Of a stretch of 64,000 nucleotides of DNA, positions 20,254 to 21,485 are shown in pieces; position 1 is the first letter of the stretch, and each line of letters starts with the position of its first letter. Source of the stretch: Dictyostelium discoideum (lineage: Eukaryota); contig CM000151.3 of NCBI GenBank assembly GCA_000004695.1, positions 800,001 to 864,000 on the forward strand, written 5' to 3'. The notes beneath the pieces are model-generated. The model saw only the letters and a list, made by a program, of their open reading frames with translations. It ran no database searches and was not told the origin of the DNA. The translations under genes were made by a program, and so were the position numbers.

Positions 20254-21485
20254 TCAGTTTTCTCCACTTGAACTAGAACTGCTTGAGCTAGAACTGCTTG
20301 AGCTTGAACTTGATGAGCTGCTTGAGCTTGATGATGATGATGATGATGATGATGATGATGATGATGATGATGATGATGATGATGATGATGATGATGATGA
20401 TGATGATGATGATGATGATGATGATGATGATGATGATGATGATGATGATGATGATGATGATGATGATGATGATGATGATGATGATGATGATGATGATGAT
20501 GATGATGATGATGATGATGATGATGATGATGATGATGAGCTGCTTGATGAAGAGCTTGAGCTTGATGAGGAGCTTGAGCTTGAGCTTGAGCTTGATGAAG
20601 AGCTTGAGCTTGAGGAGCTTGATGAACTGCTTGAGCTTGAGGAGCTTGATGAACTGCTTGATGAACTGCTTGAGCTTGAGGAGCTTGATGAACTGCTTGA
20701 GCTTGAGGAGCTTGAGCTTGATGAAGAGCTTGAACTAGATGAGCTACTTGAACTTGATGAAGAGCTTGAGCTGCTTGAGCTTGATGAAGAGCTTGAGCTA
20801 CTTGAGCTTGATGAAGAGCTTGAAGATGATGAACTTGAGCTGCTTGATGATGATGATGATGAGCTGCTTGATGAGCTTGAGCTGCTTGATGATGAGCTTG
20901 AGCTTGAGCTACTTGATGATGAGCTTGAGCTTGAGCTGCTTGATGATGATGAGCTTGAGCTGCTTGATGATGATGAGCTTGAGCTGCTTGATGATGATGA
21001 TGATGATGATGATGATGATGATGATGATGAACTGCTTGAAGAGCTTGAGCTGCTTGATGAAGAGCTTGAACTGCTTGAAGAAGAACTTGAACTGCTTGAT
21101 GAAGAGCTGCTTGAACTAGAACTGCTTGAGCTGGAACTAGAACTGCTTGAACTAGAACTGCTTGAGCTTGAACTAGAACTGCTGGTATCTAAAATATTTA
21201 AAAATGAAGCAACACCCAAATCTCCTACTTCTGCCATCTTATTAGTTCTAATAATAACAAAAAAAAAAAAAAAATTTGTTAGACTATATACATCTATACA
21301 TTATATTATATAAAGTAAATAATTTTTAATTAATTAATTAATTAACACACTTACTTTTCTAATTGATATATATCTCTTTGTGGTTCTTCATTTGTTATTT
21401 CAACACTCTTTCTATAAGGTGTGACTATACTTGGAAGAACCAATAAAAAACTTATTAATACAATAAAAAACCATTTAGAGTCCAT
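20254..21485 (-). CDS. Secreted protein with a ~300-residue uninterrupted poly-serine tract. Exon 1 is 21355..21485; exon 2 is 20254..21247.
   Basis: Exon 1 (MDSKWFFIVLISFLLVLPSIVTPYRKSVEITNEEPQRDIYQLEK) is a signal peptide ending at a GTAAGT donor (21349-21354). The acceptor ttattag is at 21248-21249 (phase 2). Exon 2 reads TNKMAEVGDLGVASFLNILDT followed by ~300 Ser and then GEN-stop. The Ser run uses mixed codons (TCA, AGC, TCT, AGT) through a DNA stretch built of (CAT)n and AGCTCAAGC units. Confidence 0.55.

Follow-up and report, generated by a model that had tools for sequence, protein, structure and literature searches.

Is a run of 306 serines in Dictyostelium discoideum the tail of a genuine protein whose purity is kept by selection, or a triplet expansion of no consequence, and what would a tail of this kind do? 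The question arises on the minus strand of a 64,000-nucleotide stretch of the genome (GenBank assembly GCA_000004695.1, contig CM000151.3, positions 800,001 to 864,000; hereafter the window, whose own numbering is used throughout), where an earlier reading made from the letters alone (the sequence-only reading) had proposed a signal-peptide protein with about 300 consecutive serines at 20254–21485. Comparison of this polyserine locus with four relatives indicates that it is a true dictyostelid gene, conserved and protein-coding. Our best explanation as a whole, to which we assign a probability of roughly 0.55, is a conserved gene with a secreted product and a selected serine tail that acts as a glycan carrier. 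The part of this explanation that concerns the gene, its family and selection on the tract is held with high confidence.

A two-exon polyserine gene on the minus strand

Reading and translation of the minus strand placed the ATG of the polyserine gene at 21485. Exon 1 (21355..21485, 131 nucleotides, phase 2) encodes MDSKWFFIVLISFLLVLPSIVTPYRKSVEITNEEPQRDIYQLE plus the first two bases of the codon for K44, and its open reading frame (ORF), if left unspliced, terminates at a TAA that arises at the donor (GAA AA/GTAAGT). The intron (21248..21354, minus strand, 107 nucleotides) is AT-rich and runs from GTAAGT to TTATTAG. Exon 2 (20254..21247, minus strand) supplies the last base of K44, followed by TNKMAEVGDLGVASFLNILDT, 306 serine codons, Gly-Glu-Asn and TGA, and its 3' end reads AGT GGA GAA AAC TGA. 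The spliced coding sequence of 1125 nucleotides specifies 374 amino acids, MDSKWFFIVLISFLLVLPSIVTPYRKSVEITNEEPQRDIYQLEKTNKMAEVGDLGVASFLNILDT + S(306) + GEN, in which a hydrophobic signal sequence precedes a head of 46 residues, and an unbroken run of 306 serines leads to GEN-stop. This translation agrees to the base with the sequence-only reading, which had described a signal-peptide exon, a consistent intron, about 300 serines and GEN-stop.

The pure polyserine tract (20266..21183, minus strand; 306 codons, amino acids 66–371, GC 42%) makes up 82% of the protein, and the C-terminal Gly-Glu-Asn and stop occupy 20254..20265 on the same strand, the Gly right after the tract being invariant in the family described below. 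A Pfam search, in which matches with E ≤ 1 were examined, returned only sub-threshold noise, with no domain on either side of the tract reaching the cut-off.

An orthologue in a close relative

The corresponding locus of Dictyostelium cf. discoideum (GCA_054859205.1, JBTAPH010000041.1; L001), which was reached via the neighbouring PEPCK gene, carries a called gene in the equivalent position, right after the ZIP transporter. Its exon 1 encodes a peptide identical at 44 of 44 amino acids, with two synonymous nucleotide changes, and uses the same GTAAGT donor. The intron measures 79 nucleotides against 107 in the window; this 28-nucleotide difference arises from indels that are not multiples of three, so the stretch behaves as non-coding. 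The length changes in the exons, by contrast, are all in frame and comprise one 3-nucleotide indel at the start of exon 2 (AEV versus ADQV) and 144 nucleotides in the tract. The frame continues into 258 uninterrupted serines and ends, as in the window, with GEN-TGA. As remodelled here, the gene encodes 327 amino acids, including the 258 serines.

A wider family with a conserved head

A phmmer search of 1.84 billion proteins with the 44-residue exon-1 peptide retrieved P0123, a 49-residue ORF (E = 1.1e-4) on a 26.7-kb ENA metagenome scaffold (L003). This scaffold encodes a signal peptide and a NEEPQIDI head, then an intron, a small exon SAEHVVSRVISSFSLSSV, a 35-nucleotide intron, 169 pure serines and GDN-stop. 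Two other phmmer matches, P0121 and P0122, were rejected as repetitive and unrelated, their similarity being confined to a portion of the hydrophobic stretch or of the PYR region. Scanned by pattern with two heads, the JGI metagenome contigs yielded two further members, each a single uninterrupted intronless ORF: L004 encodes 432 amino acids with 363 serines and ends in GI, and L005 encodes 315 amino acids with 249 serines and ends in GF. Neither has an intron where the window gene has one.

The search for homologues that the sequence-only reading had called for thus yielded four relatives, with tracts of 258, 169, 363 and 249 serines. The connection between the exons, which had been set beforehand as a point on which that reading could be refuted, held as well: D. 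cf. discoideum has the same exon 1, donor and frame, and in L004 and L005 the head and the polyserine lie within one ORF. Word-indexed homology searches with the 67-residue head and with the full-length protein gave no homologue; low-complexity proteins are probably hidden from such searches by clustering or masking. No paralogues were found in the window or in the other loci examined.

Exon 1 of the window gene was 100% identical at the protein level to that of D. cf. discoideum, 73% to L004, 51% to L005 and 51% to L003. Among themselves the family heads were 43–61% identical, the closest pair excepted, and tblastn between them gave E values of 1e-5 to 1e-20 in a small database. Alignment of the five sequences (the window gene, L001, L003, L004 and L005; alignment A2) revealed the same three-part architecture throughout. 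A hydrophobic signal ending in LLVLP[SA] and a head motif R-[KR]-x-V-x-I-x-N-E-E-P are present in all five, and each has more than 150 pure serines (306, 258, 169, 363 and 249) followed by Gly, one or two residues and the stop; the residues after the tract are GEN in the window gene and in L001, GDN in L003, GI in L004 and GF in L005.

In the window the extended motif R-[KR]-x-V-x-I-x-N-E-E-P-x-x-x-I lies at 21369..21413 on the minus strand (amino acids 25–39), and R25, V28, I30, N32, E33, E34, P35 and I39 are invariant in the alignment. The invariant R is followed by K or R, giving RK, RK, RKR or RRR, and this basic cluster may serve dibasic processing or belong to a sorting motif. Between the head motif and the tract lies a variable spacer of 15–25 residues that ends in a hydrophobic-S-F/Y patch. 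From these shared features we propose that dictyostelid proteins with a signal peptide, a NEEP head and polyserine constitute a new small family, undescribed within the searches made.

The L004 and L005 contigs (1532 and 1091 nucleotides) each consist of a short 5' leader, a complete ORF and 11–38 nucleotides past the stop, and are in this respect transcript-like. If they are metatranscriptome assemblies, they would be direct evidence that homologues are expressed, and the L004 lineage might then be spliced.

The serine frame and its competitors

The only long minus-strand ORF at the locus is the serine frame (20254–21237, 327 amino acids); an exact look-up of this exon-2 ORF in the protein collection gave no match. 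On the plus strand, two poly-Met/Leu/Ser/Cys ORFs at 20298–20738 and 20739–21119 lie outside the gene. Both reflect (TCA)n on the opposite strand, and the sequence-only reading had rightly dismissed such poly-Met ORFs as a mirror artefact.

Two further frames deserve closer attention. The Ala/Gln/His/Leu/Pro frame on the same strand and the Asp/Glu/Leu frame antisense to it contain no stop across the tract in any of the five sequences, which raises the alternative that the true coding frame is one of these and not the serine frame. Automated annotation has in fact followed both: the deposited 325-residue model of D. cf. discoideum (L001 20036–21114) ends 16 nucleotides beyond the serine-frame stop, at the TAA of the Ala/Gln/His frame, and a prokaryotic-style gene caller picked the antisense Glu/Leu/Asp ORF in L003 (4306–4854, minus strand, 182 amino acids) instead of the polyserine gene. 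However, these frames are open by the arithmetic of serine codons. The +1 frame of a TCN/AGY run is limited to CNT, CNA, GYT or GYA and its antisense frame to GAN or CTN, so any such run forces both open and their openness carries no information. The start codon, the conserved signal peptide and the head are joined to the serine frame only, without an intron in L004 and L005, and the variation between alleles is silent in the serine frame alone. Furthermore, AGA and AGG never occur in the tracts, a restriction that antisense coding, if selected, would not impose. We therefore regard coding in either of the other frames as extremely improbable.

The deposited D. cf. discoideum model was also examined as a candidate in its own right, but no 325-residue model with a single GT-AG intron can be built, and it is probably partly out of frame. 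Stop-free Asp/Glu/Leu antisense frames of long serine tracts could more generally seed spurious 'coiled-coil-like' proteins in databases. A C/D-box small nucleolar RNA on the plus strand (archaeal Rfam families sR2 and sR41, 20519–21017) was rejected, its scores of 22–26 bits lying below gathering thresholds of 42–54 and its UGAUGA being that of the (TGA)n mirror. No tRNAs were found in the window.

Codon composition and repeat structure of the tract

The window tract uses five serine codons: TCA (180), AGC (74), AGT (27), TCT (19) and TCC (6). The first four were those listed in the sequence-only reading, from which TCC was missing. Tandem Repeats Finder identified two perfect blocks on the minus strand, (TCA)70 at 20329..20538 and (TCA)14 at 20989..21030. 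The first has no counterpart in the D. cf. discoideum allele and, for that reason, is clearly a recent slippage expansion; the second corresponds to (TCA)28 there. The two blocks cover only 84 of the 306 codons and are embedded in imperfect arrays with periods of 6, 9, 12, 15, 18, 21, 24, 27, 36, 39, 63 and 66, every one a multiple of three. Such mixed, imperfect arrays mean that the tract is not a simple microsatellite, as had been claimed from the sequence.

AGC accounts for 24% of the serine codons of the window tract, against 3% in a background of 873 serine codons from 12 other long ORFs of the window, and chance origin of the tract is consequently not a candidate. Across all five family tracts the AGC share is 24–41%, an 8- to 14-fold excess over the background. 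This excess may spread the load over both tRNA-Ser families or damp slippage; either is possible.

The codon strings TCA TCA AGC AGC TCA and AGC TCT TCA TCA AGC recur in frame in four of the five family genes. The heterogeneous part of the tract (20700–20999) folds strongly as minus-strand RNA, at −54.2 kcal/mol against −30.8 kcal/mol for dinucleotide shuffles (z = −7.0), apparently owing to self-complementary AGCU.

Selection on the serine homopolymer

A codon alignment of the window and D. cf. discoideum tracts covered 195 codons, of which 174 were identical, 19 differed by a one-base synonymous change and 2 formed cross-family pairs; whole-codon gaps were also numerous and took in all of the (TCA)70 block. 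Synonymous differences in the tract amounted to about 3% per site, compared with 2.9–5.3% mismatch in the flanks and intron. Among random single-base changes in these two tracts, only 24–26% keep serine and 10–13% create a stop, and the tracts of the five genes together comprise 1345 serine codons with zero interruptions. Synonymous change as dense as non-coding divergence, combined with a complete lack of non-serine codons, therefore shows selection at the protein level. No formal P value is quoted, as the repeat alignment is ambiguous and repeat copies are not independent; a few independent events are already enough to make a neutral tract untenable. The sequence-only reading had inferred protein-level selection with frame-preserving turnover, and its view is borne out by tracts of 306 and 258 serines that differ by whole-codon changes only.

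The main competing account treats the locus as neutral junk, namely a compound triplet expansion whose purity reflects only youth and homogenisation, in an ORF that is dispensable and perhaps hardly expressed. Such an origin would be in keeping with the genome. Triplet-repeat homopolymers are abundant in D. discoideum, with serine among the four commonest residues (PMC3188802), and for the most part they are not conserved with D. purpureum, so that arguments have been made for their being junk (PMC3188802; PMC9234386). The polyserine tract resembles them in its slippage by multiples of three and its rapid change in length (Eichinger 2005; PMC3188802; PMC3460934): it differs between the two alleles, its (TCA)70 block is found in D. 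discoideum only, and the syntenic place in D. purpureum has no orthologue. The resemblance ends there. Ordinary homopolymers extend over tens of residues, often use one codon, follow ordinary codon frequencies and are rarely conserved in position with D. purpureum (PMC3188802), whereas the polyserine tract draws on both serine codon families, with five codons and an AGC share unlike that of the background instead of one dominant codon in genome-like usage. Its position and purity are also kept, with 169–363 pure serines at the same place in five sequences whose heads, outside the closest pair, have diverged to 43–61% identity.

Youth does not account for at least two other members of the family. 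The longest run of a single codon is 2 in L005 and 4 in L003, so these tracts are not recent or simple triplet expansions. Synonymous variation is plentiful at the same time as non-serine codons are absent, and the head is itself under purifying selection, as seen in its unchanged exon-1 peptide with two synonymous changes. Taken together, these observations make the neutral account improbable. Under selection for the homopolymer, the length of the tail drifts fast by replication slippage of whole-codon units while purifying selection purges each non-serine codon, and the outcome is a tract that varies by lineage in length and codon pattern, yet stays 100% serine.

Secretion or membrane anchorage

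The predicted signal peptide (21429..21485, minus strand; amino acids 1–19) consists of an n-region MDSK and an h-region WFFIVLISFLLVLP with a small residue at −1. Its most hydrophobic 11-mer scored 3.4 on the Kyte–Doolittle (KD) scale, and a site conforming to the (−3,−1) rule follows residue 19 in every family member, with LLVLP invariant and then S or A. The prediction was rule-based, made without SignalP. On these features the polyserine protein probably enters the secretory pathway: the N-terminal signal would direct the primary product there and would probably be cut after LLVLP-S19, leaving a chain of roughly 355 residues. The mature chain would then comprise a short, mildly acidic head with R-[KR]-x-V-x-I-x-NEEP, which would act in sorting, processing or anchoring, followed by the 306 serines and Gly-Glu-Asn.

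The same N-terminus could instead serve as an uncleaved signal anchor. In that case the product would sit in the membrane in type II orientation, with a cytosolic stub of four residues, and the polyserine would form a surface or lumenal stalk or brush. The uncharged stretch WFFIVLISFLLVLPSIVTPY, at 17–20 residues, is sufficient to span a membrane, with the conserved basic R-[KR] immediately behind it. Those basic residues would be lumenal, however, an unusual placement in a stable type II anchor, and the family-wide LLVLP-S/A with its (−3,−1) site is a pattern typical of cleaved signals; we consider an anchor unlikely and predict a cleaved signal. At the other end of the protein no hydrophobic segment was found (the sequences end in SSSGEN in the window gene and in GDN, GI and GF in L003, L004 and L005), which makes a glycosylphosphatidylinositol (GPI) anchor unlikely.

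A proposed glycan-carrying tail

Within the secretory pathway, Golgi enzymes would place a dense array of serine-linked groups on the tail. Dictyostelium has Golgi mucin-type O-glycosylation initiated by GT60 enzymes, together with a glycophosphotransferase-like gene family that acts on Ser/Thr (PMC3188802), and the candidate groups would accordingly be mucin-type alpha-N-acetylglucosamine (GlcNAc) glycans, added by the GT60 polypeptide GlcNAc-transferase, and/or GlcNAc-1-phosphate (GlcNAc-1-P). So modified, the tail would form a bottle-brush polymer, hydrated and probably anionic, in the lumen or in the extracellular matrix. By analogy with the systems compared below, we put forward a glycan-carrier function, O-linked or phosphodiester-linked, as a tentative proposal whose odds fall slightly short of even, and a material role for the tail is suggested by analogy only. 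The mucin-like, O-glycosylated or phosphorylated spacer envisaged in the sequence-only reading is plausible in its modification and doubtful as a spacer, because only two or three residues come after the tract.

The closest analogues share some of these features each. Like the mucin-type O-glycoproteins initiated by Dictyostelium GT60, the polyserine protein has a signal followed by a long low-complexity region of hydroxy amino acids and no folded domain, but mucin domains are imperfect tandem repeats of Ser, Thr and Pro, whereas the tract is 100% serine, with no Thr and no Pro. The Ser-rich domain of the D. discoideum cysteine proteinase cprG reportedly bears GlcNAc-1-P, and proteinase I is said to carry GlcNAc-1-P on serine (see Ord 1997; Mehta 1996; Gustafson 1980). 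These enzymes offer a precedent from the same organism for serine runs in a protein of the secretory pathway; their runs are short inserts in a papain-family enzyme, in contrast to hundreds of serines in a protein for which the Pfam search gave no peptidase domain.

Polyserine linkers in bacterial carbohydrate-active enzymes (Teredinibacter, Saccharophagus) join two folded domains and usually have fewer than 100 residues. They too are long, nearly pure serine runs in secreted proteins with mixed codons, but they come from unrelated organisms, and the dictyostelid tract is followed by G-x(-x) and preceded by a 46-residue head, with no Pfam domain on either side. The proteophosphoglycans of Leishmania and Entamoeba (see also Moody-Haupt 2000) have Ser-rich cores that include other residues, carry phosphodiester-linked glycans and are often GPI-anchored. 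The likeness lies in the Ser-rich core and, for Entamoeba, in its also being an amoebozoan; unlike the GPI-anchored forms, the polyserine protein lacks a hydrophobic C-terminal GPI signal and ends in SSSGEN.

A further comparison concerns glycofibrils recovered from pond material by CryoSeek (TLP-2 and TLP-3, as well as TLP-4), which have linear cores of 2–4-residue repeats; the model of one core, explicitly patterned on Dictyostelium proteinase I, is X-Ser bearing phosphodiester-linked glycans, and no encoding gene was found for TLP-2 and TLP-3 (bioRxiv 10.1101/2025.09.30.679562). These fibrils share with our proposal short-repeat peptide cores bearing O-linked or phosphodiester-linked glycans on serine, and a polyserine chain modified at each second or third residue would resemble them. 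The comparison is a pure analogy, in that the polyserine protein is known here from its gene alone and the pond fibrils from cryo-electron microscopy (cryo-EM). It is a long shot that the family provides the polypeptide at the core of a glycofibril or a proteophosphoglycan. If it did, an extended serine chain would carry a large glycan on every, every second or every third serine, the glycans would interlock as a helical shell, and one foreign residue would break the periodic glycan lattice.

A secreted polyserine that carries no glycans would draw on the same evidence for gene, family and selection. It might be unmodified or phosphorylated, and might act as a self-associating, hydrogen-bonded matrix (of beta-sheet or gel-forming type), as a phosphoserine polymer of the phosvitin or phosphophoryn kind that binds calcium or metal, or as a store of serine. 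Absolute purity would suit the demands of a homopolymer's material properties, and poly-L-serine is known to self-associate. On the other side, there is no conserved kinase seed motif, L004 and L005 having GI and GF where an S-G-E/D end would be needed, and Ser-rich chains in the Dictyostelium Golgi meet glycosyl- and glycophosphotransferases directed at serine. A glycan-free tail is accordingly the less favoured version of a secreted polyserine, with a small but real chance. A specific route to phosphorylation, in which the C-terminal S-G-E would act as an S-x-E seed from which a secretory casein-kinase-like cascade would spread backwards through the tract, was rejected on the same GI and GF ends.

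Several points weigh against the explanation that we favour, a conserved gene with a secreted product and a selected, glycan-bearing tail. Known Dictyostelium mucin-type acceptors are rich in Thr and Pro and are not pure serine, and the sequence gives no pointer to which modification, if any, the tail receives. The signal peptide was judged by simple rules, and its uncharged stretch could act as an uncleaved signal anchor. The gene is known here from DNA alone, its 374-residue spliced product having no exact match in the protein collection. Concerted evolution of the repeats could inflate the count of independent synonymous changes. At the syntenic site of D. purpureum, finally, there is no polyserine gene, and the two minus-strand genes there are Cys-rich.

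Genomic context and flanking sequences

The window has a GC content of about 22%, and its genes include ComC-type, PEPCK, F-BAR/SH3, ZIP transporter and DEAD-box helicase genes. The PEPCK ORF shares 99% identity with a D. cf. discoideum protein and 89% with D. purpureum. In the D. purpureum locus (L002; GL871058.1, 15186–20974), synteny holds for the ComC-like, PEPCK and F-BAR/SH3 genes and then breaks; beyond the break, a gene for a 1176-residue protein and two Cys-rich, secreted-looking proteins, one of the CfaA_B_C family, replace the RING, ECM10-like, ZIP and polyserine genes.

Around the polyserine gene itself, the D. cf. discoideum locus matches the 400 nucleotides upstream of the ATG at 97% identity. 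Directly after the stop, the 3' untranslated region contains an (ATA/TAA)n microsatellite (about 20215–20235) of about 6 units in the window versus about 30 in D. cf. discoideum, and just beyond it a GC-richer block, AAAACTCGACCACCAAATTAAAAATATTAATCCAGGTGTGCAAATGCATATATAAA, is conserved between the two. The intergenic flanks at 21690–22140 and 19860–20120 contain A/T homopolymer runs of up to about 40 nucleotides, and small islands of higher GC also lie in both, such as CCAACGCCGCCC near 21785. These runs and islands could be promoter elements.

Prior record and significance

The paper describing the HRaP database gave 306 as the length of the longest uninterrupted serine run in the D. discoideum proteome in 2013 (PMC3965023). 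This record equals the tract exactly, and the gene must therefore already have been part of the reference proteome; it also justifies the description of the tail, in the sequence-only reading, as extreme even for Dictyostelium. In the literature on Dictyostelium polyserine, we found no functional study of the polyserine gene. The gene and its record run are thus already known, and what is new, within the searches made, is the conserved family and its signature of strict purity.

The glycofibril interpretation, if true, would explain why 170–360 serines remain uninterrupted across species, and the family would supply a type of gene for the 'linear peptide core' fibrils that have none, such as TLP-2 and TLP-3. 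There may in this way be a link to the linear-peptide fibrils with a glycan coat that cryo-EM has revealed in environmental samples and that still await explanation. The polyserine gene also offers a convenient test object, being one small, non-essential-looking gene in a haploid, tractable host in which the fate of 300 serines in the secretory pathway could be followed, with dense O-glycosylation, phosphoglycosylation and the formation of fibrils or matrix among the possible outcomes. For Dictyostelium itself, the tract contrasts with the prevailing view of homopolymers as unconserved junk, and it is among the cleanest natural cases of selection on a homopolymer.

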